DNA from: Haplodiscus bocki
Taxonomy: Eukaryota
DNA length: 64,000 nucleotides
Direction: 5' to 3'
Assembly: GCA_965655095.1 (NCBI GenBank)
Contig: OZ296659.1
Location: 9,486,001 to 9,550,000 of the forward strand
A model generated the notes under the pieces. It saw only the letters and a program-made list of their open reading frames with translations. It ran no database searches and was not told the DNA's origin. This document shows positions 830 through 57,390 of the stretch, one piece after another (position 1 is the first letter of the stretch; each line of letters starts with the position of its first letter). The translations under genes and the position numbers were made by a program.

Positions 830-3330
830 GATACAATTTAGACAGAAAAAGGATGTCGTTTAATTGAAGGAAGAGAGGAAGGTGGAGGATAGTTTGGAGG
901 AACAACTGATCGTTGTACGGTAGATCTTTGCCTGGAGTGCCACAAACCCATTTCAATGATTACCTTCGGAAAGCTTCCAGATCTCGGATGCTCCCTCTTG
1001 TCAGGCGTGCACAAGTAAGGCCTCAACTGACAATTGGCAGGATTATGGACTTGTACAAACCCAATCTGACGACTGATTTCACACGATACGCAACATTGCG
1101 TAGGAAGCAGTTATGAAATTCTTTCGCTTTAGAGAGGCGGTCTCTAATGTCGCTAGACCGGGATAGATTCCTACCCACGAGAACACCTAAGTCTCGTATC
1201 TCTGTGAGTTCTCAGCGGCTGATCGTTCAAGATCTTCCGTTCTAGTTTACCTTTCAAAATTAACTATGCGCATTTGTCAGACGCTAGGATCATTGTGTTG
1301 TTAGTGACCCATTTTTCGATATCTGATTTGTCAAATTGGAACGTTGAGGTTGATTTACTTTCCTGAAGAATTTTCAAGTCGTCGGCAAATATATATGGTT
1401 CACTGAATTTCATGGTTTCGGGTAAATCCTCAATAATCATAGAGAAAAGAAGCGGCCCCAGCATTGATCCTAGGGGTACACCACTCGACTCTGGCCACTC
1501 TTGTCAGAACTGGTTTTTCAACCAAACAAACTGCTTGTGTCCTTACAAGTTGTCGAATAAGACACGACCGACTCCAATTTTGCCAAATTTTTGTTGAAGT
1601 TGATGGGGTACACGGTCGAAAGCTTCTGAGAAGTCTACATAATTTGTTTCTACTAATTGATTTGAGTTGTTGTCTAGTGCTCTGTGGATATCCTGCAAAA
1701 ATTGTCGCAAGTTACTGAGTACAGATCATTTCCCAACGAAACCGTGATTTTTTGTCATGTGGGTTGCAAAAAGTTGATACAGTGGTTCATAGACGCACTT
1801 TTCAGTTATTTTGTAATCAATATTCAGTAGTGATATCTCGCGATAGTTTGTCGCGTTTCTTCTATCCCCTTCTTTGTGTATAGGTGTGACAAGGTCTCTT
1901 TCCCATAATTGAGGAAGTTTTTTGTTCTCTTGATTGCCTTTAAAAGTACGTCAGAGTTGTCACAAGTGTTCTTTCGCTTATTGAAAAAGAAAACAGGCGG
2001 GATTCCATCTGGGTCTTTGCTCTTAGTGACGTCAAGATCCGTTCAAATTTCTCGAATTCTTGTTCTCGATATCTGGGTATGCTGAATTTGGTCAGCTGAG
2101 CGTGTTTGTTTGCATCCAATTCTTATGTTTGTTTTGAGGAGGAAACTCAATTGATTTTTTTTTGTTGAACAGGTTGGCTTTACCTATGGATGTGGACGCT
2201 TTTACGCTATCAAGAGTCTTAGTGAGCCGGAAATTCGAGCTTTTGTTGAGCTTCTTGCGGTGTTTGTGAGTGACGTCCGTGTGTCGCGAGCCGAACATTT
2301 TGTTCTGGTAATCATTTCTATCCTCTTCCCTAAGGTGTGTTACAGTGTTTTCAAGCTGCGTCACCTTCGAGTTCCTGTAGATTGTTTGCTCTGGAGTACT
2401 AGTCTTTTCGTTGGTAATTTTTCCGCATATGGGATATCGATGGTGTGATCCAAAGAGGAAGTGCTTGTCACTGTATTGCTCTGTGAACAACATATTTTTC
2501 AGTCAGTTTTTTGTGGTAAACCTCAAGCTTGTTATCCAATTTATTGGTGTTTTTGTCACCTACTGGTTTGAACGGTTCTTGTTCCATACTTTGCAACATT
2601 CCGTGGGTCACTCGAACCAAAACTTTTGTTCTTTTTCAGAATTTTGTGGGGATACGGTGTGCGGCAAGTCTATAGAAGTTACGAAGCAAAATTGATCAGA
2701 GCAATCAAAAATGGAGTCGAAATCATTATCGTCGCTACAATATGCTGTACAGTTGTGGTGGAGTGAGACATGGAGCCAATTTTTTGTTGTTGTTGGGAAT
2801 TTCACTGCTTGTTGGGAAAGCGGTTATCAAACAAGTTCAGGACTTGTTGTTCGTATTCGTCAGTGCTGTTCCAGTTTTCCCAACAAATAGATGAGAGGTT
2901 GAGGTCTGCACATAGCATGGCTATTCTATTCTGTGGTATCGTTTCCGGAACATTAACAATGCTTTGAACGTCATTCAAATGGGGGTTGTTCTCCGGTGGG
3001 TTGTAGTGAACACAAGTATAGTTGATAGATCCTTCGATGATCGCTTCATACGCTAGACTGCCATCTACTTCATTTTTGATCTTATGGGAGCTGATAATTT
3101 TGATTGCAATTGATGCTGCAACGTCCATATTTCTACCTTCCGATATCCGATGTTTCCTGTAAATGGCGTAGTCGTCCAAATGGAGCTCATTGTCGCTAAT
3201 GTTTTCGTTCAACCATGTTTCTGTGATGCACACTATGTTATAATTTCGAACCTTTATTAGATTTGGTAGTTTGAAACGACGTTCATAGTTCACGAGACTC
3301 CGTGCGTTCTTCTACAGGGTTTTTAGATAC
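830..3330 (-). pseudogene. LINE ORF2: apurinic endonuclease + reverse transcriptase, disrupted
   Basis: Track ORFs 2802..3293 (APE), 1264..1464 (GPLLF...FADDLK) and 753..956 (RT C-terminal segment) are pieces of one frame-broken ORF2. Confidence 0.9.
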
Positions 3331-5334: not shown

Positions 5335-5538
5335 GCCAACAACAGTCAAGGAAAGTGGGAAGACAACCTGAAAATAGTTCACAAGTTTGCCACTGTTGAG
5401 GACTTCTGGTCTCTGTTCAATCACATCAAACCGGCGTCTCAGCTGGCCAAAGGCTGTGACTACTGTCTCTTCAAGGACGGCATCATTCCCAAATGGGAGG
5501 ACAAGAAAAACAAAGGCGGAGGCCGATGGGTGTTACAG
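5335..5538 (+). CDS. eIF4E: eIF4E (class I cap-binding translation initiation factor), internal exon A
   Basis: ANNSQGKWEDNL...FATVEDFWSLFNHI...GCDYCLFKDGIIPKWEDKKNKGGGRWVLQ. Acceptor tttcag ends at 5334, donor gt at 5539, phase 0/0. Confidence 0.97.
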
Positions 5539-7452: not shown

Positions 7453-7643
7453 ATTCCGAAAACTGCCAAAGACGAAGTTGACAAGTACTGGCTGGAGACG
7501 CTGTTGTGTTTAATTGGAGAGGCCTTTGAGGACAACGCTGGTGATCTAGTAAACGGCTGTGTAGTCAGTGTCAGGCTCAGGGGAGACAGAGTGTCCATTT
7601 GGGTCGGAGATAAAATTGACCAAGCATTAGTCCTCGGAATCGG
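7453..7643 (+). CDS. eIF4E: eIF4E exon B
   Basis: IPKTAKDEVDKYWLETLLCLIGEAFED...VNGCVVSVRLRGDRVSIWV...LGIG. Acceptor tttcag, donor gttag, phase 0/2. Not in the ORF track. Confidence 0.96.
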
Positions 7644-8375: not shown

Positions 8376-8430
8376 CCACAAAATTAAAGACAGATTAAAG
8401 TTGCGACAAAGCACGTCAATAACTTTCCAG
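8376..8430 (+). CDS. eIF4E: eIF4E exon C
   Basis: (G)HKIKDRLKLRQSTSITFQ. Acceptor tttcag, donor gttagt. Phase 2/0 fits both neighbouring exons. Confidence 0.92.
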
Positions 8431-15989: not shown

Positions 15990-17250
15990 TATCTCGGAGA
16001 TACTTCTTTCGAGCTAAATTCAAATTTTGAATTTTTATGAAAATGTCTGGTCGAATTTTTATGGAAATGTCTCAGTCGAAAATTGTCAAAGGAAAGAAAT
16101 CCCATTCATAAAAGATAAAAGTGGATCGGAACATCAGTTGCTAACTATAGAGACAAATAGCTCTAACTGTTATCATACGGAAGTTTTAGAGAAATTACTA
16201 TTCAAAATGAGAATGAACTTCCTCGAAAAGTTCAAAAAACTACCAAGTACACATTTCGATTTTTTTTGAAAAGAGGAACTGTCGAAACAATTACAAGTAT
16301 GTTTGAAAAATTGAAAGAACAAACTGGTAACGAAAAAACTTATCATGCTACTTTTCTGGATTTAGCTAAAGCCTTCGATACCGTCGACCATTCTTTGTTG
16401 ACAAACAAGCTAACTTAGACATACGATGACAAATCAACGGATCTGCAATCTGCTAATCTTCAGAATTTTCGACAATATATGACCTATAGTAGTTGAATCA
16501 GGAAGCTTGGAACAGTTCTTTGCAGAGTTCCTCAAAGACCTGTTGTAGGGGTTCTTATGTTTCTAGCATTCTTGAAAGGTTTTCCCAACCTTCAATTGAA
16601 CTGTATCATGACTTTTTGTGCACGAAACTTATCTTTATATGGTGATATGAACTATTCATTGGAGAGAGTTTTTGACCGTGTTTCCAAAAGGAAGAACCAA
16701 AATGATTTTAGATTCAATGAAAAAAAGTATTGTTCGGAGAAAACCATTTCGAAATTGGAAACAACTTTCGTTGAAAAATGTAGAAAGTCGCTAGTGCGAA
16801 GTATTTGAGACTTCAAATCCATAAAAATGTCAATTTCAAAAAACATATAGAATTTGGCAGAAGGAAGTGCTTCCATAATGTTCAGTTACTATGAAATTAG
16901 AAAACTTTAAGAAGAACCAAAAGTGTAATCGGAAAGCTAGAAAAATAGCAAAAGCAGTTGTTTCGAATAATTTTTGGACTCAGAATTGTTGAAAGCACAA
17001 GAGCTATAAGGTTCTCTCACAAATTATTATCACTAGGTGAACTTCATTTATTTGTATGAACTGTTCAAAGTTGTAAATACTGAGACGCCAGCATCCTGTA
17101 AATTAAAATAATTAGTATGTTCAGACGAGGAAAGAACACTTTTTTCAGCGAAATGAAAGAATAAGACTAAAAATGAGCCACACTAATGAAAAGAAAATTT
17201 GAGTTGAAAACTAGAATGAGGGAACTGTTCAATATTTATCTTGAATTCAA
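15990..17250 (+). mobile_element. Degraded LINE RT fragment
   Basis: FLDLAKAFDTVDHSLLTNKL (~16353-16412), RVPQRPVVG (from GVPQGSVLG, ~16525) and LYGD (from LYADD, ~16635). Confidence 0.8.
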
Positions 17251-17540: not shown

Positions 17541-18966
17541 AGCAATGTCTGGGAATCAATTGTTACAGAATTTGTGCAGAAGATTAGATGCAGCTTTGAG
17601 TGACGATGAAATCTCCAATGTTATCGAAGACATACTTGGCTTCACCAAAATTTTATGTAGAAAGAGGAAATTCCACAATTCTATCCTTGAATCAATGAAA
17701 AACCCGAACTCCTCACAGTCATTGGCAGAAAATGAATACGAATGTTTCAACAAATTGCGGGCAAAAGTCTGTCAGAAGATCTTACAGAACGCTTCCAAGC
17801 CAATTTCTCTGAAATGTTTGCAAATATTTTTCAACATTCTTTGGTGCCATTCGAAATTTTGCCAAGTTCCATTGATTTATGACAAACTGTTTATGAAAAG
17901 TTATGAAATGCTCATCGAGTCAGTTTTGTTACATGGCCCAAAAATTGTGACCAATGTTTTCGTCAGAAACGTGAACCAAAGGTTGGACTATTTGGTTTCG
18001 TTTTATCATTTAGCTACAAGCTCAAACTTTGTGGGACTTATTGCGGAAACTTCTGCGGACGAATTCTCTCATTACGTGAAAACTTTGCTGAAATTGGCAC
18101 CTCCCAAAACCCAGGAAGGTTATGACACACTTTTCGAGAAACAAGAATGCAATTCTAAAGCTTGTTTGAAGTTTCTAAGTTTTGATAATCTTAAAACGAA
18201 GTTCTCAAAAACGTGGCTCTCAGTTTTGGCAATTCCTATGGAAATATCAGTTGAAACTTCGCTTCTTTTTCATTTGTCGAACGATCTGATGCCATTGTTT
18301 TCGGACCCTCGAGATTTGACCGACTTTCTGTTCATAAAACTCGAATCAACGTTTCTCAAATCGAGATACCTGTCGCTTGATTGCTTGCAAACATTGGTTG
18401 GTAAATACAATTTAGAGTACCCCGACCTTTATGAAAAGGTTTACGAAATGTGTTCTGAAGAAGCATTCATGTTGAATACATGTTCGGACAAATTTCTTCA
18501 AGTTCTTCGAAGATTTTTGCTTTCAACCAAACTTTCATACGAGCTCTTGGTCAAGTTTTGCCTACGACTGTCGGAACGAGTTTTGAAGAGTGAAGCTGTG
18601 ACTGCTTTGAAGCTTATGGCGATGATTGACGAGATTTTAACAACGCATAAATTGTTACCGACCAAAGAACCGAATTTGCGAAGGAAAAAACCCAAAAATT
18701 CCGAAGTGGAAGAAATTTGCCAGTCTAATTATGTGAGCGAAGATTTAATAGACACTATTTTGCGAATCAAGGAAACGATGAAAACCCATTATCACGCTGG
18801 AGTAAGACACGAAGCTTCAAAGTTGGGTGAAATTTCGACAAAAGTTAGGCTGACCGATGTTTTAGAAGTTGAAGATTTGTCAGCTACGATGTTCAAACTC
18901 GCTGAGCAGAAAGTTTTGAAAGATGAAATCGTTTTTGTTGCTAAAACTGAGTTTCCGCTCTCATGA
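17541..18966 (+). CDS. NOC4L: Nucleolar complex protein 4 homolog (NOC4/NOC4L, CBF/Mak21 domain; 40S biogenesis), main exon
   Basis: Intact ~475-codon frame with FSKTWLSVL, MPLFSDPRDLTDFL, LSLDCL, YNLEYPDLYEKVY, FLLSTKL, KFCLRL and ILTTH. AATAAA at 19008-19013. The track start (TTG at 17485) lies in the polypyrimidine tract. Confidence 0.88.
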
Positions 18967-19964: not shown

Positions 19965-20135
19965 AGTGGTGGTAGTAATAGAAGGGGGGTTTAGAGGCAC
20001 TTATGACTCTCCATTCAAGGTAGTCGAGTAAGAGCCATTTATTGCTCCGGAATCTTAATACGTAACCAACTCTTAGTTTAACTTAATGACAAATTTGACA
20101 GCTTATCTAGTTTAGTTTTCTGACAGATTTCAAAC
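19965..20135 (+). repeat. Polinton left terminal inverted repeat
   Basis: AGTGGTGGTAGTAATAGAAGGGGGGTTTAGAGGCACTTATGACTCT...GGTAGTCGAGTAAGAGCCATTTATTGCTCC...AATCTTAATACGTAACCAAC... is the reverse complement of ~33705-33875 (about 85% identity by eye). Confidence 0.95.
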
Positions 20136-20800: not shown

Positions 20801-23800
20801 ATGTTCCTCATTAAAACGATTCGATGTGACGAATGCCAAAAAGTTTTCACATCGAAACGCATTTTGTATCAGCATATTCGCCAGAAACACAATGAAGAAC
20901 CAACATTGCATCTACGGACTTTCATTTGTGGCCACTGTGATCAAAGTCTGCCGTCTTCCTTCAACCTTCTTCGCCACATTCGAAATATTCATAATTTAAC
21001 TAGTAATTTCAAATGTCTATCATCTTCACTTGTATTCGGATGCGCAGATTTGCTTGAGAACTTGAAAGACAGATCCATCTCAAAACTTCGAGCTCTGCTT
21101 TGTCTCAACGCCCCGTCTCTGACCATAATTTAGAAACTTCTTGTGTTCAAACTTCAAAAAACGATAACTTCGAAGTTTTTCATGTGAACATCGAACCCAA
21201 AAATGTGGAACATTTCCAGTTTTAACTTCCGATGAACAGAGCATCATATCTTTTGTTAACGAGAAACTGCCCGTGTGCGGGTCAGAGACAGTGGGGATAA
21301 GCATTCATATAAAACTTTGAAAAGCATTGGCAGACCACTTTGTAACAGTGTATTTCATTTCATCAATGGTGCGTGTAGCCCATCAGTGGCACACAGACGA
21401 TTATACCAACATGATTCATAGCTTGCTTTCTCAATGGAATGATTGTTATTCTGTGGGATCTGAATAGGTTATCGAAACTCTGAAACCTCTGGAGATCAGG
21501 ATGGTCGGTCCCTTCAAAGGAACTGCATCATCTTTTATTGAGACCCCAACTGAACTCTAAAAAGTCTACGGAAGTTTGCTTAACATCAAGAATGAGAATG
21601 AAATTTGCTTTCTGTACAGTGTACTTCCTGGTTCATTTTCGCAACAAAATCATGCTGAGCAACCGTCTTCGCACTCGCCTTTCATGGATGAGCTTGCATT
21701 TGAGGTACCTAATTTTCCAATGAGTTAGAGCAAAAGACTGACATTTGAGAAACGAAACAATGTTTCAATATCTGTTTATCCTTACAATGAAGGCAGGCCT
21801 TTTAACGTTTTTTGTACAAAAAATCGAAAGTCTCGACAAAAATTCAAACTTCTGCTGCTGGTCGACAAGCAGAAAAGTCACCAACGCCTAATCAATAACT
21901 TCTCAAGTTTTGCGCATCATTTGATCGGTCGTCGCGAAAAAGGTTGAATGGTCCAAAAACAACAATGCGGCAACTGTATGCAGCCAATTGTGAAATACAA
22001 CTTCCACCAGCACGTCCAATTTTGTGAACACCAAAAACCTCTTGGAAAAAATGCCGGAAAACAAGAAGAAACTGGCACACGAAAATTGGCAAGAACGCAA
22101 CTTAATCCGTTTGTTGTATATGCCTACTTGGAAGCCATCATTGTGGCGTCCAATGAAGAAGGTGGAAACAACAGTTCAAACACAATTGAAACTGAACGCC
22201 AATACCATGCCAGCAACGACGTCGGTTTTTATTTCGTGTTGAACTGTTTCTGTTTACAATTTGCATGTCATGTATCATATCTCAAGAAGAATCTAAATTT
22301 GTTTTTGTTTCAGCAAAGTTGACTGAGAAGTCGGAGTTCTATCGAGGAATCGAGTGCACTCCGAGACTTATGAAAACTCTTCGCTCATGGTTCAACTGGA
22401 CTTGTGGACGGCAACAGACTTTTCGATGGCTTCAACTGTCTCAGGCAGAGCATCAAAAGTATTTATCCCCGCTTACAGTTATCTGTTGTATTTGTGGAAT
22501 GACAGTATCTCTCTTGGAGCGTGTTGTCCATCACTGTCATATAACTGGTAAAATTTTTGGTGGGGCCCACTCTTCCTGCAACTTGAAGGCGCGATCCACG
22601 AACTTTCTTCCTTTTGTCCATAACCTATGACGGTACGATGCACATCACGTTATCAAAAACATGAAACTTCTCCCTGAAGAAAAATTGGCTGCAACATCGC
22701 AAGCAGATGAGGTCTAAAAATCTTTCAGCATATCTGTTCCTGTTGGGTCCCATATCACGAAAAAAGGTAAAAACGTACGCGTTACAAACAACCGTAGATT
22801 CTTTGATAGCTTCCAGTTCATGTCGCAAAGTTCCGAATCTCTGTAAAAACTCTAGAAGCGGACGATTTCATCCTTTAGAATATATTTTTTTCTACAACAC
22901 TTCTGAATGAGGACTGAAACCTGCTTACTCACAAAGGTTTCTACCCATATTGAGTCCTGGACTCTTTCCAAAAGTTCACTGAATCCCTCCCAAGATATGG
23001 CAATGACTGCAAAAATACCTTAACAGGCAAAAATGATATTTCTCAGAACAAATTCTTTCAAGCCTTAGACATCTACAATATGTTTGGCTGTGGCACTCTG
23101 AGAGACTATCATGATGTGTAATTACGCACAGATGATGTTTTGATTCTAGCGGATGTTTTTGAAAAATTTCGGCAATTATGCAAGAAAGTGTATAAACTGG
23201 ATCCAGCTCAGTTCTTTTCTGCCCCTAATTTGAGCTGGGAAGGAGTGCTGATTACAAATCGCGTTGATTTGGGTCTATTGACCGACATCAAGGTGTTGCT
23301 GTTTTTCGAGAGGGGATTTCGGGGAGGTATTAACGGAATTGGTGAGCTGCGCCAATTTCATGCGAACAAAAAGGACGTGGACAATTTTGATGAATGAAGA
23401 ACAAGTGTTTATTGTGCTGCATTCTTTGATGTAATTTCTTTGTATGCCGATACTATGCAGCAAACTCTACCCTTGGACAACTATTATTGGAATGAGACAA
23501 TTACTTTGGTTGATATCCTTTCTACTGGCCATGATGCAGTGATTCGATACATTGTCGAAGTTGATATCGTACATCTTTCTTCTTGACATGACTCTCGCAA
23601 AGATTTACCTTTTGCGCCCGAAAAGCTAGTGACTCAGGAATCATGGTTATCTCCCTACGTCGAATCTGTCAATGTTAAGTTACCAAATGATGCTAGAAAG
23701 AAATTAGTTGAAACGTTAGATGAGAGTCGCTACGTCTGTCACTACCGTAGCCATAAAATTTTTGTGCGTCAGGGTCTGAAGGTCAAAACTTTTCATCGCA

Positions 23801-24855
23801 TTTTACAGTTTAAAGCAAATGGTTGAGAGATTGCGTTTTGGAAAACTTAAGATGAGAAAGCAAGCAACAGATGGTTTCAGAAAACCTTTTGCAAATTGAT
23901 GAGCAACGCTTGTTCTGGAAAAACAATGGAGAATTTGCGCAATCAACGAAAGATCTTTTCTGCTAATAACGAGAAGCGCGCCCACCAGTGTTTGATGAAA
24001 CCCACATTGAAATTCTATCAAACTATTCATGGTGGCTTCACCTCTGTTTCCTTTACTCCAAGTAGGAATGTTTGGTCAAAACCCACTCCCGCAGGAGCTT
24101 CGATACTTGATTTGTCCAAACTGTGTCAAAAAAACCACTACGACGAAATAAAACCGCGCTTCGGCGACACATAAAATGTTTATTACAAAAAAACTGACTC
24201 ATTGTTGTATAGAATCGAAACAGAAAACCTTCATTCGACACTGGCAACCTTCAAACATCTGGTGGACTTGTCGAATTACCAAGGAGAGCCTTTCTAAGAT
24301 GACAAAACCAACAAGAAAAACAACTTGCCATGACGGATGAATTACAGGGAAAAGTTTTGAAAGAAACTATTTGCCTGAAGTCATAAATCTGTAGTATTCA
24401 ATTCGAAGAGGGCGTCAAACTGAGTGCAACAGAAGTGCAAAAAAGTGTCAAGAAAACGCTAGTTCATGATTTGTGCAAAGAGTGTTTGCTGAAGAAAGGA
24501 AGAGTTGAACGGTCCATGACCCAATTGAGATCCAAAAATTATCAAATTGTTGTCAATCGTGTGCACAAAGTTGCAATGAGCAGTTATGATGACATACAAA
24601 ATTTACTCGATGATAGTTTCAAATCGCTTGCATATGAACACTGCGAAGTTGGCAAAAATCAGAAAAACGAGGGTATTGTTAGTTGTTCCACTAGATATTG
24701 CTTTTTTCCAAAAGCATAATCACTTTTTTCGAATCATAGGTTGTTGCGCTTCCTCAATAATCAGTCACATTGATGATGAAAGTGACAACGCCAGGTCGTG
24801 TTACTCAACGATTGGTTCCACTGACACAATAGAAGACAAAACTGATCATCTCTAG
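20801..24855 (+). pseudogene. Protein-primed family B DNA polymerase (pPolB) with N-terminal C2H2 fingers and an inserted endonuclease VII/HNH-type domain, disrupted
   Basis: C2H2 fingers CDEC..HIRQKH and CGHC..HIRNIH; CCICG..VVHHCHITGKIFGGAHSSCNL; HNL*RYDAH; DSFQFM; KGFYPY; LADVFEKFR..DPAQFFSAPNLSW; ERGFRGG; FDVISLY; KLMSNACSGKT; KTDS; VHKVAMSSYDD. Confidence 0.95.
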
Positions 24856-25019
24856 GTGGCTTTTCAACGTACAACTCCGCCAACAACTTCATAATCTCTA
24901 CTTCAGCAGCCAATTTTCAGTTAGATTGCCATTAGCTATATTGTTATACAAAAACAAATTTTCAAGTTTCGAAAATCGGCAATAGATAAACTTTAGGTCC
25001 TCCGAATCTTGGGTTTTAT

Positions 25020-25184
25020 NNNNNNNNNNNNNNNNNNNNNNNNNNNNNNNNNNNNNNNNNNNNNNNNNNNNNNNNNNNNNNNNNNNNNNNNNNNNNNNNN
25101 NNNNNNNNNNNNNNNNNNNNNNNNNNNNNNNNNNNNNNNNNNNNNNNNNNNNNNNNNNNNNNNNNNNNNNNNNNNNNNNNNNNN
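25020..25184. other. Assembly gap (165 N)
   Basis: Run of N. The true length is unknown. Confidence 1.
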
Positions 25185-25439
25185 GACCGCTTTGATGAGA
25201 TGGCCGCAGAGTCTGAGTAGGGTCAATTAACAAAAATGGTTTGCCCATTCATTGACTGGGAAGCAGAAGAGTTGCGAGAAGAAGATATTACGCGCGATGT
25301 CAATAGTATTCTAAGTATCATCGCAAAAAAATGGTCTAAACTTGTTTTCTAGAGTAACAGCAGTGAGTCTGATAATGGAAACTAACGAAATTTTATTCAT
25401 TGAAACAAAAAATGATTATAACAAAATTTGAATCCAAAA

Positions 25440-26035
25440 TTACATTTTCAATGCATGTTGAATTAGAGTTTAACTTCGATCTCTGAAACGGTGGTCAAAT
25501 TGGTAAGGGAGCTAATAATAAAACACTGTACCTTTGAATGGAAACTTCCTCTATTGCTACGCAACAAGCTGGGAACGTTTTCCGCGAATTGAATTTGTTT
25601 TAGATAGGGAGCCTTAAACAAACTGTTAAGTCAGCAGAGATTAGAACTAGGGTTTTGCAAAGAAGAGTTTATCTCGAAACTTCACGTTGATTCCGCTGAA
25701 AAATTCGCCAACCAATTGTTTAAACTTTTATATCATTTGATGGGCGAACCGAGTGGATCCCAAACAAAAAAGAATCATCAATTTGCCGTTGCTCTTTTTG
25801 TTTGTTTTTATATGACGATGTACACTAGCAAAAGCCAATCTCGCCCAATTTCGAGGTAGGCGGCATTGTTTACTATCTGGTAGAAAAAAAATTCACTGCC
25901 TGCCGCAGCAGTGTCCACCATTTGCCCAATGTCTTGAACCCAAAAGAAGTCGTCAAAAGAAGCCACGCCAACAAAATTCCGAGTAATACCGGGACAAAAA
26001 CCTTTGGCTAGACATATTAGGGTGAAAATATTCAT
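25440..26035 (-). pseudogene. Adenain-like (C5) cysteine maturation protease
   Basis: FVGV, IVNN...GRDWLL (G-x-H-W with H>D), VWDPLG (from FDSxG) and LQNPSSNLC* (Q-x4-5-CG, with GGA>TGA). Confidence 0.85.
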
Positions 26036-26039
26036 TGGC

Positions 26040-27373
26040 TAACGGTGAATTTTTTGAATTATTCCTGGAGTTGTCAATAAGAGTTTGACCAAATCGTTCT
26101 CCAATTAAAACTAGTTCGACTGTTTCTGGTAACGCTTGGCTGAAAGACAATTTCCCTGTTATGCCTGCTCCGGTCAAGGCGGGAGGGAGGTTCAAATTTT
26201 AAAAGCCTTTCCTTGTTGAAGTTAGGTCGAACACGAGGTAGAAATGGTTTGCCTGATAATCTTCCAAAGTAGTTCCGTTGCCGTTTGCTCAAATGCCAAG
26301 GCTGTTAAGATGTTGTTGTGCTGTCGTGTGTCGTTTGGTGCATCCAGCGGCGTCCCTGCGAGGGGTAAACCATTGCCTCTCAGAAGCTCCACTTTGTGCA
26401 AATCAAACATTTTTTACCTGAAGGGCGTTGAAGCAGTCGTTGTTCCACGGAAAACAAGTTCCATGTCATAAACGTTTTCTTCCAGAAATCAATTCACACC
26501 GAAAAGGTTTAGGTTGAATTCCCTATGTATGGATTCACTGTGCAACTTTTTGTGAGCACTCACTCGATGCTAATCTTCACATTAACCGACAAAACAGTCT
26601 TCTTGACAAACAGCGAAGCTTTTTCTACTACAATTACGGACGGATTTTTATGGAGTGCTCATACTTCAGCGTTATTCAAATCGATCAAAGTTTTGCAGAG
26701 CGCAGTGATTTGGCGATCGATAGAGGCGCAAGTGCAAAGTCACGCCCGGTATTAGTAAACGTTCGCCATCCAAAAAGTCGATATGTTGAGCTCTGTATAG
26801 GTAAAGTGAACAAATACCAGCGCTGTCGGTTTTTTTATGATTTTATCTTTCAGTTCAAGGTTCTTTTCTTTGTTTGTTCGATACTGGTGTCCTTGACAGA
26901 CAGCCCAAGTCATTATGCCATTTGGATTTGCGGTTAGTTTTGTCTTGGCAAACACCACGTGATGATAATTGTTGTTGTTACTCGAAATAAGTTCTTCATT
27001 AGGAAAAACTCAAAATTGGAAATTAGAGAATGTAGGTTTTATCTCGAGGAAAGCAGATTGTCTGGCGTCACGGCATCACTTCCGTTTAAGTTGTACCTAT
27101 TGCTTTCCAATCCCAAACAGACTCGGTCCAAGTCGATGCAGTTCCTCTTGTCGGTTGTGACAAAAAAAATCAAGCTGAGGGCTACTGCAACCTACATGTG
27201 GAAACGCTTCTTGATCCAATGATTATTCATAATTGATTAGTACAGATGGTCGATCAGAAACGTCCAGAGAACTGCGGGTGACTGGATAAGCAAACTCAGT
27301 GGAGCATCCGAAGGAGAAGTTTTGATTGCTGCTTGCGCCGCTTTAACCCGTCATCACCACTCACTGATTCCAT
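26040..27373 (-). pseudogene. Double jelly-roll major capsid protein (Polinton MCP/hexon-like)
   Basis: N-terminal SSLDV..P...QLDF..D...IDL; STFWMANV...LTANPNG; C-terminal GKLSFSQALPETVELVLIGE...IDNSRN, typical of Polinton MCP. Length ~440 codons. Confidence 0.85.
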
Positions 27374-27479
27374 TTGACTTCTGCCTCTCTCCCGTAATCT
27401 TTTCTTCTTCAACTAAATGAAAAATTGACTGCTTATATTTATTGCTGAAAGCAACACTAGCAAGTATATCAGACTGACT

Positions 27480-27965
27480 TCTTCCTACAACTTATTTGGG
27501 AGAAAAGTGGTGGTGGTGGTATCATTGAACTTTTTTCGACGGTTCAGCAATCCAAGTGATTTGCTGCCCCCAATTTGTATGTTCGGGTGCTCACCGCCCT
27601 CCCGCTCACGCCGGCGACACCCGTCCGCCCGCGCGGTTGCCCGGAGCCTGCTCCCGCGCGCCATTTGCTCGTATAATTTCAGACACATTTGCTTTTGTCT
27701 TTCTTTATTGTGAGGCAGCGGAGGAGGTTATGGTTTTTGCAGCAGCCTTTTGAATGTTCCACGCAATACTGCCTCTGTTAGTTTTTTACCGCTTATGAGG
27801 TTGGTATTTTTGGTCACAGAAATTGATGAGTTTCTTGCCCAATTCCTGGGCGACATGCATCACAAATTGTTTCACGAGAGGCATTGCCATGCGGCCCATA
27901 CGCGTTGCAAATGCGCCCAGACCTCCTGACCTAACCTGCCGTGCAGGCCCGTGGAACGTCACCAT
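27480..27965 (-). pseudogene. Small virion protein: pVI-like amphipathic N-terminus plus Arg/Ala-rich tail
   Basis: MVTFHGPARQV(R)SGGLGAFATRMGRMAMPLVKQFV..VAQELGKKL, followed after frameshifts by a GC-rich segment coding RGSRLRATARA..RRRERE..QIGG. Confidence 0.65.
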
Positions 27966-28015
27966 GTTGGGTGTTTTAATTGTCTTTTGGCAGATTTGAT
28001 GATCAAAGTGAGCAT

Positions 28016-28303
28016 CTATGTTGCTGTTGCTGTTGCTTTGCTAACCTTCCTACCTTTTGACACAACAGATCTTAACGTCTCCGTTTCGCAACAACAAAAT
28101 AAAGATGACAGTGGGCGGTTATCATTGTTGAATGTCAGATGTGCGTGGCGGTTTGTCGGAAAATCAGATTTTTCTGACAGGCTGGAAGCTAGCAAATGTA
28201 TTTTAATAGAAAGTAGAGCGTACGACTGCTTCTGTAACATCTGAAAAAGTAAATGACGCGGCGCAGCGATGAATATAAATAATAATCCCAGGACTCCCCC
28301 CAT
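28016..28303 (-). CDS. Small Polinton ORF of unknown function (hydrophobic N-terminus)
   Basis: Open 95-codon ATG frame filling the gap between the penton and pVI-like genes. No recognisable motif. Confidence 0.3.
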   Translation of the reverse strand: MGGVLGLLFIFIAAPRHLLFQMLQKQSYALLSIKIHLLASSLSEKSDFPTNRHAHLTFNNDNRPLSSLFCCCETETLRSVVSKGRKVSKATATAT

Positions 28304-28315
28304 TTTGTTGCAGGT

Positions 28316-29329
28316 GTTTTACCTGCTTGAATTGCAACGTTAGATTTGTCCGTCCACGGCTGAAAAACGGAATGGGATCGCTTGTCTCACTTCTGACAGA
28401 GATGGTTAATGAATGACTGGAAGCTTTCATATCACGACGCCATTCAGGTTTGTTGGAAGTTTGTTGAATCCTTTTCCTTTTGACAGGCACAGCTGTGAGT
28501 AGAGCGATTTGTGTTGCTCCCAATATTTTGTTTTGAACCAAGTCATAGTAAACGAACATTGTGTGCAACCCAGCTGTTAGGTCAACTGGATAATGACCAG
28601 TAGCCTCGTTTTTGCCCCTTTCTTTTTCTTTTAACTATTTCGCACTTGATTGGGATTCCTCATTTTTGTGGATTTTTTCAGTTGCGTTGTTTTCATCGTT
28701 AAATGGGCAACAGTCAACTAAATTTTCCCAGCCCAAAATGTTTTACAGGTCTTGAGGAACAACTTTGAGGAGGAACTTTTTATTTTCTGTTTGCGATCGT
28801 TGAACGAAATTGAACTTGAGTAACTGCGACGTTTCGCAAATGTCCTAGTCAAAAAGTGATTCATCGGTGTCCCAACCAACTTTGCTGCAGAAGTTGTTGT
28901 TCATCGATTGGGTGATGGAATTCAGAGAAGTAATAGCCTTTCGTTACTGAGAAAAAAATTTCCGGTGCAAATGCCTCTTCCTCAAGCGTTGATTTTGCTC
29001 TTTTAATGCAGCTACGGGGATGACCTAAGGAAACTATGCCGCTATGAAAACGCGAAATCTTTGCAAAGATGGATTTTGAGACCGACCCTTAATTTTCCTC
29101 CTGGCCTGCAAGTAGCTGACAGCTAAATAGAACTTCGGTCACATTTTCAATCAAGTTTGGTCATGATAGTTCGACTATGGCAACTTCCCATGAACCGTGG
29201 AAGAACAACGATTGTGGTAGGCGAGTTGTGAACTTGAAGGTTTTTTTTCCGCGAAAGTTGTCAACGAAGCTTATGTGACTAAGTTATTGGTGAAGCTGTC
29301 GCTTTGATTCCTTTTCGTAGCTATTTCAT
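28316..29329 (-). pseudogene. Minor capsid protein (penton, single jelly-roll)
   Basis: N-terminal FTTRLPQSLFFHGSWEVAIVELS*P and C-terminal MFVYYDLVQ..LG....LL..VP...ISVRSE..DPIPF..GRTNLTLQF. Confidence 0.88.
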
Positions 29330-29344
29330 AGTTCGTTGTTTTTC

Positions 29345-30332
29345 TTGTCGTCGTCCTCTTTTTGAAAACGCAGCAACTCGCTCTCGTAGAAGTTTCTGCG
29401 GATCAACTCTAGTTGTTGGAGTTTCTCAATCAAAAAGTGGGGAGATTCAATGTTTCGACTGCTTCAATTCGGAAAACCTCTTCAGTGAATTGTGTGAGAT
29501 ATCCACATTGGAAGAGATCTATTTTTCGGCAAATTTGAACATGTTTTCCATTTTTCAGCTTTGCTTTGCTGATTGGGTCACAGTTATAATGAAAAATTAC
29601 AAGAGCTCTGTCGGATTTTTTGAAATATTTCGGCGCCAGTTTTGTCACGCAGTTAACCGTAGAATTTACAATGCTAATGCTTACCTGAAGTTTGTCAACA
29701 AACACTTCAGTGTTATTTTCGTGGATATGCTTAAAAAAAATTATGGATCGAAAGTTTTTTTCAGCAAACTCCGACTTTTTTTCGCCGCAAGTCGTATAGA
29801 GGTGAATACCCGACTCTTGGCAAAAGCTAGAAAAATCGGGTGGAAATTCACGTCCCTTGTCAACCCATATCTTTTCCGGCCACGGTGATAGAGCGTTATG
29901 GCCCCGGCAATACTTGGGTTGATAATCACTGTGGCTACTTCTAACGCGCTAAATATTATCTTTTTAGGCTTGAAAACAGGCAGCTGCTGTTTTTCGTTGG
30001 AGTGGAACAACCCAGATGTTTGTATCGACAGCTTCGAAAAAGACTTTTTTGACTTGGTTGTTTTTAAAGGATTGCAGCATGTCAGCCAACTCAATTGAGG
30101 AGATTTTATTGAGTCTATAACTTAGAGTTTTGAGTCGTTTAAAGTTTCAGTGGGCTTGTTTGAATTTTGCGTAGGTCTCGCTTTCTCGTAGAAAATTATT
30201 GACTTCGTTGTAGCTACAGTTTGACTGCAGTTTCAGTGATATTCGGTTTCCGCAGGGAGCAGGATTTCGACACGACGTATACAAGTTATGTAAATCACTG
30301 TAGGTGATTGTTGCATGTTTTTCTGGTACCAA
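29345..30332 (-). pseudogene. Retroviral-type (rve, c-integrase) integrase
   Basis: LY...NPA..G..L.....EVNNFL..ETY..FK; LADM; ID...W.VPL; GKE-like; RFVDKL...NS..N..TKLAP; GYLTQFTEEVFRI...PTF. Confidence 0.9.
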
Positions 30333-30339
30333 ACGACGC

Positions 30340-31130
30340 CTTCTTGTACACTTCGAGCACGAAAAACTGTCACATTATCTTTGGTACTGTGTAACAGCTG
30401 CCAGGTCACTACATTTGTTTCGAGCGCAACCGCAAACGTTTCACCAAATGGGAGGATGCTTGAGTGAGCCTTTGCCAAAAGGTTTTTGGCAGTTACCAGA
30501 GGTGTATTTAACGCTTTTGGCTCGCGCCTTCCGTCGTCCAACCATATCTTTCACAGGTGCCAATTCGTGGAGCGTTTTCGAGACGATTCGAAGATGCTTT
30601 GCTCATACAGACGCTGCAGTGTGGCGTGCTCAAAGCTTACCTGGGCTGATTCAAGCGGGTTTCTCTCGTCTTCGTTTACGCTACTCCTCATTTCCGATGC
30701 TACCTTTTCAGCAAATGTGTTTGCTAGAAGGTAAACTAATAGAGGCAAACGTCTTACCAAATCGAGGGCATTCTTTTTGATTTTTTAGTAGGTGTTTGTA
30801 TATCAGACAAAAAGTCCAAAACTGCTTTTCCCGTATCGCGATCATGTAAATAGATTCGTCCAGAGACATTGTTGATTGAAACAAATTCAGTTGTGCTCAA
30901 TTTCCGACTTCGCTGCCTTCGCCGCTTCGTCAGCTTGCTCGGCATCTGACCCAATGGTGCTGACGGTGGTCTTCTTGCAGAACCTGGTAATCAAATTTTT
31001 ATGCGCGCATTTTGTCGCCGTCGGAAAGTCTTCGACACTGCTCGAAGTGTTTTGCGCAACCGTCTCACTCACGGCGCTTTCTTGAAGGTTTGGACTTTTG
31101 GAAGTCTGTTTTTCAATTGAATTTTTGTTT
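30340..31130 (-). pseudogene. Unassigned Polinton ORF(s) between ATPase and integrase
   Basis: Minus-strand fragments (GRIYLHDRDTGKAVLDFLSDIQTP; RKRSTNW) are co-oriented with the flanking genes. No family recognised. Confidence 0.4.
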
Positions 31131-31134
31131 TTCT

Positions 31135-31590
31135 TGTTCTGAAGCGAACCATTTGGCTAACATTCAGCTCATTTGTCTTAGAACGTTTTGAATTCTGGAA
31201 CAGATTGTGCTTTAACGCTATCAAATGAATAATGCGATGTCTTCCGGAACTGACTAAGTTGAGAATCTATTCTTCTTTGCAAGCTTGGTGATACAAATTG
31301 GCAATTACCACCTGGTTAGCAAGTTTCAAGCTACCTATTTTCTTTCTGCTGACCAATTCCAATTAGGCCCTTATGAAATTTTATGCTTAGTTTTCCAGCT
31401 ATACAGCTAGTTAGAACAGTATCAAAATTTATTTCGTAATGACTGTAGAAAGAGAAATTTTTTTCAAAAGATGGATTGAAGATTTTGGTTTGATTCATTA
31501 ACATATTTGATACTATTTGTGTTTTACCACTTCCACAGGGCCCACAATTGAGATGAAACCTTGTGTATTGGTACAAATGCGTTTGTTCAT
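31135..31590 (-). pseudogene. A32/FtsK-HerA-type genome packaging ATPase, frameshifted and 3'-truncated
   Basis: MNKRI...FISIV(fs)GPCGSGKT (Walker A); VVIANL (decayed Walker B, from VVIDDL); SGRHR..HL...HNLF..SK...LN. Confidence 0.9.
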
Positions 31591-31935
31591 GGTCTAGGTT
31601 CTGGTACCACGTAACCGATGCAGGTTGACAAGATACATAAAATTCCTGTTTGTTATGAACTGTTCTCGGCAAAAGCCAAGTAAGCAATCGAAAACATAAC
31701 AATCGCAACAATAATGAAGTACTGGAAGAGGAGCACTGAAAAAGACATTGAAGTGTTCCAGAACAACAACGGCACTTAAATTGGAAAGGAGGTCTCTTTC
31801 TTTCGTCTCTGTCGAAAATGAAATCGTTTGTTTTAACATGATCAACCAAGTCCACGGCAACAAAATTGATTGCTGATTCATTTGTCAATTCGGTTGATAG
31901 GCTGGTGGTGTCCTCCCTCGATGCGACAAATGGTT

Positions 31936-32145
31936 TCAGAAGGTGTATATAATGACTACCGCTTTAATCGACTGGTTCACTCTTGCTATGTCGTTTAATG
32001 TCATCCGAATGGTAAAATGTTTCCCTTTAATAGCTTGCTCAAAGAAAATTTTCGTATCCTGGGTCAAAAGCGAAGCCTTCAGATAAATTTTATCGGAAAT
32101 GGGCAGAGAAAATGTCAACGCAGGTAACTCTAGCGCAACTGACAC
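31936..32145 (-). CDS. Small accessory ORF, possibly PC4-like ssDNA-binding fold
   Basis: ISDKIYLKASL..DTKIFFEQ...FTIRMTLNDIARVNQSI fits a beta-beta-beta-helix pattern. Pattern resemblance only. Confidence 0.3.
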   Translation of the reverse strand: MSVALELPALTFSLPISDKIYLKASLLTQDTKIFFEQAIKGKHFTIRMTLNDIARVNQSIKAVVIIYTF

Positions 32146-32589
32146 ATCGTGCTCGGTAAATCATTAGATCATAAAAACCCAAATTGTTCACACAACTTCC
32201 TCTGGAAGGACTTCAGATGAAGCCAGTAGCCTAAACCAGATAAATGTCCGAGAAGCATATTGTTCACTAAAAGTGCTCTTTCCGTAAGCACATAAATGGA
32301 ACCGGGAGCAAAATTATAGTTTTTTCTCACGAAAGCAAGTTCGTTGTGGAAGATTGCATGCCAACGGATATTTTTGAAAAAGTTCATCGAACTCTCCATG
32401 CTACTGTTTCCGGTACCCATCAACCCACCATACGGAACGAAGTCATTTTTAGCATGGAAATTTATGTTTTTGTCCAGACAGTAGTAGCACGCTGCGAGAA
32501 AGGTTTTTCTTTTCGCATTTTTTCGAAAAAGATACTTTACCAGATTTAAATTGTCTTCTATTTGCTGTACTTCAACTAAGTCTCACATA

Positions 32590-33500
32590 AATTAAATTTT
32601 TTGAAAAAACACTGCTTTGTTGAACACGTTCAATATAAATGAATTTTTCCACACAAATTGAGCGTTCTGATCTATAAAGGAGTATACATTGGGGTCAAAT
32701 TCAAAATTTTTCTCATCGCAATTGTCAAATACAGAGTCGGAACATTGAGTGCATTCGAAACACTGGCAATAATCATTAGAATAGCCGAGGTCCACAGCAA
32801 GACCAGTGTTATGATGTGAAACCTTGATGTTGCCCAAACCGCGTTAAAACAAATTGATGAAATCATCCACACAATCTTTGAAAACTTATTTGATTTTTGT
32901 AGCTCTGCCAGTCTTTTAAAGATTGCTTTTTGGCGTCTCTATTCCCGTTAAACTCAGCGTAGCAAATGCGCTGGATTATTCATACAGTTTCGAAGGTGCA
33001 TCCTAATTACTTGGTTGATTTCGCTGGCTGAATCGACCTCAGTTTCTCGCCGTGTATGGAATGATCGGTTGTCACCACAGTTAGCCTCTCGCCGTGAACA
33101 GTTTTCTGGGTACGATTTTTTGAACAAATCGACGTAGTGGTTTCGAATCTTGAGAGGTGATGTTGATCGTGTCAAATTTTCAGCTATGCTTCCTTAGACA
33201 AACTTCTCTGCTCCGACAAAAGATGCCAGATAAAGGAGAATGTGGTAGTGATCTTCATTAATCTTTGAACGAATGTCTTCTGTTTTAAAATATATTCGTG
33301 TGTTGTGTGGTGTCGCATACTGTATTCACAAGGCGTGCTACCAAGCAGGTTTGGTAGTAAGATACAAATTTTCTTCGGCAATTTTACCAATGCCGGGTTG
33401 GCGGGACGGGTTGTCATCCGCAAGCAATGAATTCTGGTTGTTGGACTGTGCTAGCTGCGATCTGGTTAAACATCAAATTGGTCCTCTCTTTGGGGCATCG
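32590..33500 (-). pseudogene. Accessory ORF with HUH-endonuclease-like motifs and a Cys-rich C-terminus
   Basis: One frame with 3 internal stops carries LYLTT (33367), DHYHILLY (HYH at 33250-33242) and HYVDLFKK (Y at 33136). CQCFECTQC follows in another frame. Confidence 0.45.
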
Positions 33501-33704
33501 ACGATTTTTCGACTCCTCAAAGAAATTGAATGTTAAATATTTTTTGCATTTTGTGCTTCGTTGGTTTATGATACACGCAGAATATGAACACGAAATGGGT
33601 TGTGGATAGGCTGCTGCAGGTTAGTTTTGCATTTCTGATTTTTGCAAACATTATCTTCTTCAATTTTTGTCCTTTGTACGCCTATTTGTCTGTAATCAAA
33701 CAGT

Positions 33705-33875
33705 TGTCAAATTTGTCACACTAGTAAACTAGATGAGCCGTCAAAGTTGTTATGAAGTTAAACTAACAGTTGGTAACGTATTAAGATTGGGGAGCAATAA
33801 GTGGCTCTAACTCGACTACCCTAAATAAAAAGAGTCATAAGTGGCTCTGAACCCCCCTCTCTTACTTCTGTTACT
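33705..33875 (-). repeat. Polinton right terminal inverted repeat
   Basis: ...GGAGCAATAAGTGGCTCTAACTCGACTACC...AGAGTCATAAGTGGCTCTGAACCCCCCTCTCTTACTTCTGTTACT, ending in ACT. Confidence 0.95.
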
Positions 33876-55824: not shown

Positions 55825-56094
55825 TTAAGGATGGACAGTTGAATTCTGTCGTGGTCTTATTTTGTACATCAAACGAGCCAACCACTCGCCTATGTCGACC
55901 ATAGTCATAGCACTGACTCCCATCCACAAACCCAGGAGTCCCCCTACATAGCCCAACATAGCTGATACCCCCACAGCAACTTCCACGTGATAAACTGTCT
56001 CTACTCCTTTGTCACTGAGAACCCGAAGTTGGGCGACATGCTCGGCCACAGATTCTTCCTTGATTCTCTCTTCTGGTTTTCGAGGGCGGAGCAA
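55825..56094 (-). CDS. DEG/ENaC (ASIC/ENaC family) channel, terminal exon with TM2
   Basis: VAQLRV...AMLGYVGGLLGLWMGVSAMTMVDIGEW is a TM2 with the G-x-S filter. A cag acceptor at 56097-56095 gives phase 0. AATAAA on minus at 55647-55642. Confidence 0.9.
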   Translation of the reverse strand: MLRPRKPEERIKEESVAEHVAQLRVLSDKGVETVYHVEVAVGVSAMLGYVGGLLGLWMGVSAMTMVDIGEWLARLMYKIRPRQNSTVHP

Positions 56095-56782
56095 CTGACG
56101 AGTTTCGAAATGGCACCGAAAGTATTTTTTGAAAAATTTCGGCCCCGAAAAAATGAGTTCTTGAGGTAATTGTGTAAGCAACAAAACTAAACTTACGCCA
56201 ATTTTTTTGGGCAAAAAGTTGGGATTCATAGCAACATTTTTTTAAGGATCTTGACAGAAAGGGTGCTCTTTGACATGTTATATGAATGAAAAAGGACTTG
56301 CATAGGAGAATATGAGCTAGCTCTAGAATGTTACTAAGAAACAAAAAAAAATCTAGTAGTACAACCTGCATTTTGAAAAAAAAACTCGTGATGCGATTTA
56401 CATAGCTGGAAGGTTTTTTTCATCTAAAATGACAAGTCGACAAAGTCTAAAAGATCACTGTTTTCCTTGGTTAAAGACTTACTGAGTCAGTAACTGTTGC
56501 GGGCATAATATGAAAATTCAAGAAGTTTATAACCCTCTACCATATGTTGTGAGTACTGTGACAGACAAGTGAACTTCGAAAAAGAAGATGTGGACCGTTG
56601 GTCGAAATTTAATGGTGTAACCACTCAATAGTAAACAAACAAGACGCCAGCTAATTCCAATTTCTAAAATTGCCCAACAGATTTTTATGAAAATTTTGGT
56701 AAAAGGAACTTTTGGCTGAAACTTTCGATCTTTTTCTCACAATTTTAACTACCCCAAAGAAGCATAGTGAAAAAAGTGCCAC

Positions 56783-57390
56783 CTCGTCTTCTGCCATTTT
56801 CAAGAGTTTCCGGACGAGTGGATCTTGCATAGTTTGATTTGCCATTGCGTACAACTCCTGCAACAAGTAATGAACCGTCGGGAATTTGAGAGTCCGGTCC
56901 GTGTTCAGTCTGTAGTACGAGTTTTGACATAAAGGGTAACAACTTTTCTTGCATCCTTTGACTATGTTTTCCATATACTCGTCATCATCTTCAATAGTCT
57001 TTTGAATGCATTTTCGGTATTCAAATTTTTCGAGGCATTCCGATTGGGTGTAATTCCAACCAATCAGAAGCGTGCAGTTGCATGACTTATAGAGGCTTTT
57101 TAGGAAGCACATTTCTCTACAGACTTCTTCGTTGTAATCCAATTTTAAGATCGAACCCCCAAAGTTGTATTCCAACTGATCTTTGCCGTGGGTGCACTGA
57201 ATTTGCTGTGTTGATATCACTTGATTGCGGGATTCTGCTTCTACCGTTATTTTAAGTTGTTCTCCTGGACTTATGGGTATGAATGATTCCATTGAAGATA
57301 CCGAATTTCGCTCACGAGTCACTCGAACACTTCCTCCAATCGAAATTGTATACTTCCCAAGAAGAGTGCGCGGAGAGAAAAACAGAAAAA
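56783..57390 (-). CDS. DEG/ENaC channel, extracellular-loop exon with Cys-rich thumb
   Basis: GGSVRV..IPISPG..C..YNEEVCREMC..SCNC..C..C..CKKSCYPLC..YY. A ttttcag acceptor ends at 57391 and a gt donor at 56782 is in phase with the next exon. Upstream exons were not located. Confidence 0.88.

Follow-up and report, generated by a model that had tools for sequence, protein, structure and literature searches.

The question raised by this locus is whether a virus-like element's gene for DNA polymerase can be interrupted by an intron of the host type and, if so, where that intron begins and ends. In the window (the whole stretch of DNA that was analysed, 64,000 nucleotides from Haplodiscus bocki), the frame of a pPolB gene switches between the ORFs 21948-22322 and 22196-22630. 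A segment of 68 nt (22246-22313) sits at this switch; it starts with GTTTCT, has CTAAAT at 22293 and ends with TTTGTTTTTGTTTCAG. A sequence-only reading proposed this segment as a complete spliceosomal intron, and the GT, the CTAAAT and the AG are indeed found at these positions. Comparison with related copies suggests, with a probability of roughly 0.87, that what remains here is the rear portion of a longer GT-AG insert, likely spliceosomal, which occupies one fixed pPolB site in eight Polinton families.

The element that carries the segment is a Polinton/Maverick, and the window copy of it is dead. It spans approximately 13.9 kb between a left terminal inverted repeat (TIR) at 19983-20130 and a right TIR at 33709-33858, which pair at 85% and 93%. 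All nine genes of a sister element were matched in the window by tblastn. The pPolB gene (20822-24641, plus strand) aligns to residues 3-1258 of the database protein P0007 in six pieces, which contain 22 stops, and switches frame five times. Its decayed exon 1 (20822-22214; P0007 residues 3-469 by tblastn) contains C2H2 fingers (zf-C2H2), the N-terminal domains and the ExoI motif. The decayed exon 2 (22314-24641; P0007 residues 484-1258 by tblastn) contains the remainder of the exonuclease, an endonuclease-VII-like insert (Endonuclease_7 match below the cut-off) and the polymerase, for which PF03175 (DNA_pol_B_2) was matched in two sister copies (E 5e-21 and 1e-20). On the minus strand, a decayed block with approximate bounds of 24700-33600, traced by tblastn and ORFs, holds a putative protease and a putative major capsid gene, the integrase (29430-29948) and packaging ATPase (31331-31963) genes and four more conserved genes. 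In sister ORFs, Pox_A32 was over the cut-off (E 3.8e-7), rve was just under it (E 1.3e-7) and Peptidase_C48 was under it (E 0.0024). The candidate capsid ORF of 460 aa is without a Pfam match and was placed with an Atlas score of 0.98 in a DJR-like cluster that has PF21738 on 65% of its members. The target-site duplication and the AG...CT ends are unreadable in the decayed window copy and readable in both sister elements tested, which carry AGTAGT at their ends, show target duplications of 6 bp and span 14.9 and 14.6 kb. The TIRs of one sister measure 182 nt at 86%, and those of another 158 nt at 95%. Among named relatives of the polymerase, the closest comes from the acoel Convolutriloba macropyga and is 56% identical to a sister copy; the host is accordingly likely to be an acoel or similar animal. 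A poxvirus-type late-start group was ruled out for these elements by the rarity of TAAATG, which was found at two of 68 gene starts and at none of 41 pPolB starts.

Outside the element, a host gene of the CBF/Mak21 type (NOC4-like) lies as a single ORF at 17545-18966 (plus strand), some 1 kb ahead of the left TIR, and pieces of an amiloride-sensitive sodium channel (ASC) gene lie at 55825-57484 (minus strand). Two apparent decayed retroelement remnants were also seen, one at 16280-16700 (plus strand) by RT-like wording judged by eye, the other at 2805-3311 (minus strand) by a weak Exo_endo_phos match.

Copies of this gene were compared across the 1.5-Gb genome. A DNA search gave at least 49 matches (40 of 55 candidates scored) at no fewer than 30 loci, and a protein probe across the site gave at least 224 matches from 150 of 5893 candidates scored. 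The protein-probe set consisted of 30 returned loci and 60 that were hand-picked from matches starting part-way through the probe. In all, 120 loci minus three duplicates left 117 distinct pPolB copies. In this set, whose proportions are not genome frequencies since 60 loci were picked by hand, the insert is present in 86 of 117 copies, and the excess is exactly zero in all of the remaining 31. By clustering, the copies fell into eight intron-bearing groups (A, which includes the window copy, B, f1, f4, f5, f6, f7 and f9) and three groups that are observed to be intronless (f2, f3 and f8). The insert lies at P0007 residue 478/479 in phase 1, at the same nucleotide in all eight families. This site and its phase are direct observations, as are the splice-like ends: GT and AG stand exactly at the ends predicted from the intronless spacing in 70 of 85 sister copies, and the chance of such ends, calculated from the GT and AG frequencies inside the inserts, is about 0.0014 per family. 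DNA probes from six families found 167 loci, from which 28 were dropped for weak flank alignment; the 139 that were kept overlap partly with the set of 117. Among them, 126 have the GT, 131 the AG and 121 both. A search of the 117 copies and of the window pPolB for a second intron turned up no further shared insert of at least 30 nt. In nine other genes of 11 elements (several partly covered), no insert of at least 40 nt was common to the copies, and isolated jumps stood at differing places.

Some copies are close to one another in sequence or position. L071 and L072 (f6, on different chromosomes) are identical over the 451-nt probe, a recent burst or duplication, and pPolB fragments lie close together, in clusters or as tandem copies, on C12 (L007, L008 and L016; 67.40-67.56 Mb) and on C7 (L157, L164, L165, L171 and L174; 39.97-40.00 Mb).

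Alignment with the seven closest sisters shows what remains of the insert in the window. The stretch 22225-22313 (plus strand) matches their intron at 63 of 82 to 77 of 89 bases and is the surviving 3' part of the pPolB intron, comprising interior, branch-like site, T-rich tract and acceptor. The acceptor TTTGTTTTTGTTTCAG (22298-22313, plus strand, phase 1) had been placed correctly; it is common to the sister copies, where AG stands here in the 131 DNA-probe copies mentioned above, and it resembles the acceptors of the eIF4E gene in the window. The proposed branch-like CTAAAT (22293-22298, plus strand) is aligned with CTGAC or CTAAC in three of the seven closest sisters, but a YTRAY motif lies within 50 nt of the acceptor in only five of the eight family representatives, and none is common to all. 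The sister copies share the acceptor, and they have a longer insert with a donor farther upstream, after a motif that is missing from the window. Since the excess over the intronless spacing is 71 nt in the window versus 114-126 nt in these seven sisters, some 45-55 nt have gone near 22214-22230 (plus strand), where an alignment gap marks the approximate break and the end of exon 1, the donor and the intron start are missing. The largest single gap in pairwise alignments between the window and the seven sisters was 46-56 nt in five and 30 nt in two. The family donor (GTAAGT, GTTAGT or GTTGGT, depending on the family) is absent from this dead copy altogether, a loss that is observed directly. 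The GTTTCT at 22246-22251 (plus strand), which had been taken for a weak, decayed donor, is intron interior, corresponding to intron nucleotide 53-56 in all seven of the closest sisters.

It is extremely improbable, then, that the intron of this lineage is 68 nt long and runs from GTTTCT at 22246 to the AG at 22313. The presence of GT and AG, the kept frame and the correct acceptor speak for this length, but the alignment contradicts it, and the shorter form was not found in other copies from the DNA searches. Splicing at 22246/22313 leaves a spacing one codon longer than in intronless relatives, and the product is without the FGA-aliphatic motif that is present upstream of the site in sisters and uninterrupted homologues; moreover, the frame is that of a pPolB with the stops and switches counted above. 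The compact spacing expected by the sequence-only reading, with 'VGFYFVLN' as coding sequence, is thereby lost, and this peptide is a chance translation of intron DNA.

The stops and the unconserved interior of the longer insert are likewise plain observations. Only nine of the 139 DNA-probe copies are open in frame; the other 130 have a stop or frameshift in the insert, and its in-frame stops are common to members within families. Between the eight families, identity is 65-93% at codon positions 1 and 2 and 17-72% at position 3, and the insert interiors are unalignable, exceeding shuffles (z > 2) in three of 28 pairs. Nine close database proteins (P0004, P0007, P0012, P0013, P0016, P0017 and P0021-P0023) have the same spacing and continue through the site without interruption; another four (P0001, P0002, P0005 and P0008) start inside the acceptor tract. 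When overlapping or antisense ORFs across the insert were considered, no frame was open in all eight families.

The length of the insert is less easily explained. It ranges from 66 to 126 nt and varies by family, the commonest lengths being 69, 102, 108, 108-111, 111-112, 117-118 and about 123 nt. It is a multiple of three in 83 of the 139 copies (L009-L030, L061-L297) despite the in-frame stops. This rule looked absolute in the protein-probe matches and softened with the DNA probes, where f4 has 117 nt in 14 of 29 copies versus 118 nt in nine of 29, and f6 is spread over 108-112 nt; the DNA probes were themselves copies with lengths divisible by three, which may bias the lean. Constitutive splicing does not account for it. 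The intron of f9 (L122-L148) is short, at 62-71 nt, and is stop-free and in frame in seven of 27 copies. If it were retained, the protein could gain some 23 residues within a predicted turn. Although open in these copies, f9 has the ends GTAAGT...TTTTAG at this site, where homologues are without residues.

Lengths of this kind would be expected if the insert were a hypervariable coding loop of the exonuclease domain, translated in frame or by stop read-through. This is very unlikely. The site lies in a predicted surface turn, f9 is often open, and f1 has a single in-frame stop, which falls within the donor; however, there is no peptide similarity between families, the GT and AG ends are kept, the stops are shared within families, and the 31 uninterrupted copies and the close homologues lack residues at this place. 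The lean towards multiples of three, as seen above, also weakens with DNA probes. A host-type GT-AG intron that interrupts pPolB in this lineage, as the sequence-only reading had supposed, is supported by the kept ends, the diverged interior and the uninterrupted homologues. That reading had also expected sister copies to keep the ends and the length while the interior diverged faster than codons, which is borne out for the ends and the divergence but, between families, not for the length. The prospect of intact copies reading through in one frame is realised only in the f9 copies described above, and the approximately 23 aligned residues that homologues might have contained here are found in none of the uninterrupted ones.

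The splice sites themselves resemble those of host genes, and a host-type GT donor, a T-rich tract and a YAG acceptor agree with a major (U2-type) spliceosomal intron. The donors GTAAGT, GTTAGT and GTTGGT and the acceptors TTTCAG, TTTTAG and GTTTAG occur across families, and GTAAGT and GTTAGT donors with TTTCAG and TTTTAG acceptors also occur in two host eIF4E genes, whose exon limits were taken from the translation. Inside a family, conservation of the splice sites does not exceed that of the adjoining sequence, as expected of dead copies, so that selection is visible only between families. Long ORFs of exon 2 are kept in many copies, which argues that the families multiplied with the insert in place. 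The host eIF4E exons in the window (5335-5538, 7453-7643 and 8376-8430, plus strand) have TTTCAG acceptors and GTCGGT, GTTAGA and GTTAGT donors. An eIF4E paralogue on C2 has introns, and a match on C10 extends over almost the entire domain in a single frame.

The distribution of the intron is patchy. Trees were made from about 240 residues downstream of the site (49 rows, after three short-alignment rows were left out, and 20 rows) and from the upstream part (22 rows), the 20-row and 22-row trees having one row per family. Upstream and downstream trees agree, and three changes are needed. In these trees, f9 clusters with the intronless f2, f3 and f8, and the uninterrupted P0007, P0021 and P0022 cluster with A and B, where the absence of the intron is read from database proteins on long contigs for P0021 and P0022, and P0007 may be a transcript. 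A single clade of intron-bearing rows was rejected (AU p 0.008 and 6e-11). Recombination at the intron was considered as a source of the patchy tree and rejected because the two trees agree. One gain with two losses and up to three gains at one nucleotide are equal by change count.

Several gains would follow if a mobile element (an introner, a MITE or the relic of a self-splicing intron) had hit the site repeatedly. The unrelated interiors and the lack of a single intron-bearing clade fit this idea, and introners are reported from dinoflagellate Polinton-like elements in the available text of PMC12166617. However, the insert has no terminal inverted repeat (1-6 of 15 bases at its ends match as one), the target duplication is absent in six of the eight families and 2 nt long in the other two, and DNA probes containing the insert gave matches with pPolB flanks. 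Nucleotide and phase are moreover identical in all eight families, and repeated insertion is judged improbable. Given this identity and the lack of transposon ends in the inserts, the likeliest history appears to be a single gain with two or more precise losses. Modules have also been exchanged between elements: f6 (L199-L200, intron-bearing) and f2 (L298-L299, intronless) have a close capsid/integrase block, with 89% of the capsid protein and 79% of the integrase in common over the first aligned piece, and their polymerases fall in different clades.

The site corresponds to residue 486 of P0021, which an AlphaFold model (pLDDT 86.6) places in a predicted turn (484-487) between the strands 470-483 and 488-496. 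It lies inside the exonuclease, some 40 residues beyond the ExoI motif (at 445), and the sequence missing from the window encodes much of strand 470-483. A Foldseek search with this model gave only weak hits, none at E ≤ 0.001. By the domain order in the available part of PMC11161782, where TP and vOTU precede the exonuclease in pPolB of the TP-vOTU-EXO-PALM type, exon 1 would hold the TP and vOTU.

The preferred reading, a spliceosomal intron, would work as follows. The intron was probably gained once, long ago, in a turn of the exonuclease domain and inherited through bursts of replication. The gene would be transcribed in the nucleus by the host Pol II, and the host would remove the insert by constitutive splicing before the full-length polymerase is made. 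Precise loss would need an intron-free template, and at least two such losses may have occurred, likely by recombination with a cDNA or an intronless element. In most families, unspliced RNA would run into a stop shortly past the site; the GTTAG donors that create this stop are ordinary host donors too. On a speculative reading, the intron would be a host-controlled switch, in which unspliced RNA would give a zinc finger-TP-vOTU protein without polymerase (stop near residue 480-500) and spliced RNA the replicase, and families that lost the intron via reverse-transcribed spliced RNA, or that read through it (f9), would have escaped control. Such a switch is conceivable but doubtful. If it were true, Polintons that depend on splicing and others that do not would exist side by side in one genome and exchange polymerase modules.

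An intron kept across families with near-saturated third codon positions would imply long replication while the host spliceosome was needed, and this dependence would place transcription of the polymerase in the nucleus. ORF screens would score working intron-bearing families as broken, and the start of several database proteins already falls within the acceptor. With both intron-bearing and intronless families present in the same genome, intron gain and precise loss become testable in a DNA virus-like element.

Adenovirus E2B is spliced and, like pPolB of the TP-vOTU-EXO-PALM type and the gene described here, encodes a protein-primed polymerase. Unlike in E2B, where terminal protein and polymerase are separate, the intron here lies some 40 residues into the exonuclease and not at the TP boundary, and alternative products are not indicated for it. 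Split TP genes are described in adenoviruses and a coral polinton in the available text of PMC11161782.

These elements are otherwise like animal Polintons/Mavericks, with a length of about 14-15 kb, TIRs with AGTAGT ends, a 6-bp target duplication and a pPolB that faces a block of integrase, ATPase, putative capsid and putative protease genes. Intact vertebrate Mavericks are described as being without introns (PMC8097293, citing Kapitonov and Jurka 2006), and in nematode Mavericks the core genes are intronless and introns occur only in cargo genes (10.1101/2022.07.12.499685), each according to the available text; PMC10120064, in its accessible part, applied a prokaryotic gene caller on the ground that core genes are intron-free. 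In contrast to those vertebrate and nematode elements, eight families here have a pPolB intron and three have none. Intronless core genes are a described property of Polintons rather than a taxonomic criterion, and this property does not hold for pPolB in the 86 of 117 copies. A conserved spliceosomal intron in Polinton pPolB was not found in the accessible text of the literature searched, whose scope leaves out most subscription papers and which further includes PMC12721341, PMC8502044, PMC11296320, 10.1101/2023.08.22.554363, 10.64898/2026.07.28.741278 and 10.64898/2026.10.13.758929; the supplements of PMC12166617 could list pPolB inserts. The dinoflagellate Polinton-like elements of that paper, in its available text, likewise contain intron-type sequence. 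Their introners are young transposons scattered over the elements, whereas the present insert appears to be a single old intron, fixed in its position and lacking inverted ends, that whole families have inherited. Cryptophyte Polinton-like viruses also have introns within their genomes; as described in the available part of PMC12220804, these are self-splicing group I introns of 309-376 bp within a small gene close to that for the capsid, unlike the GT-AG inserts of 66-126 nt that interrupt pPolB here.
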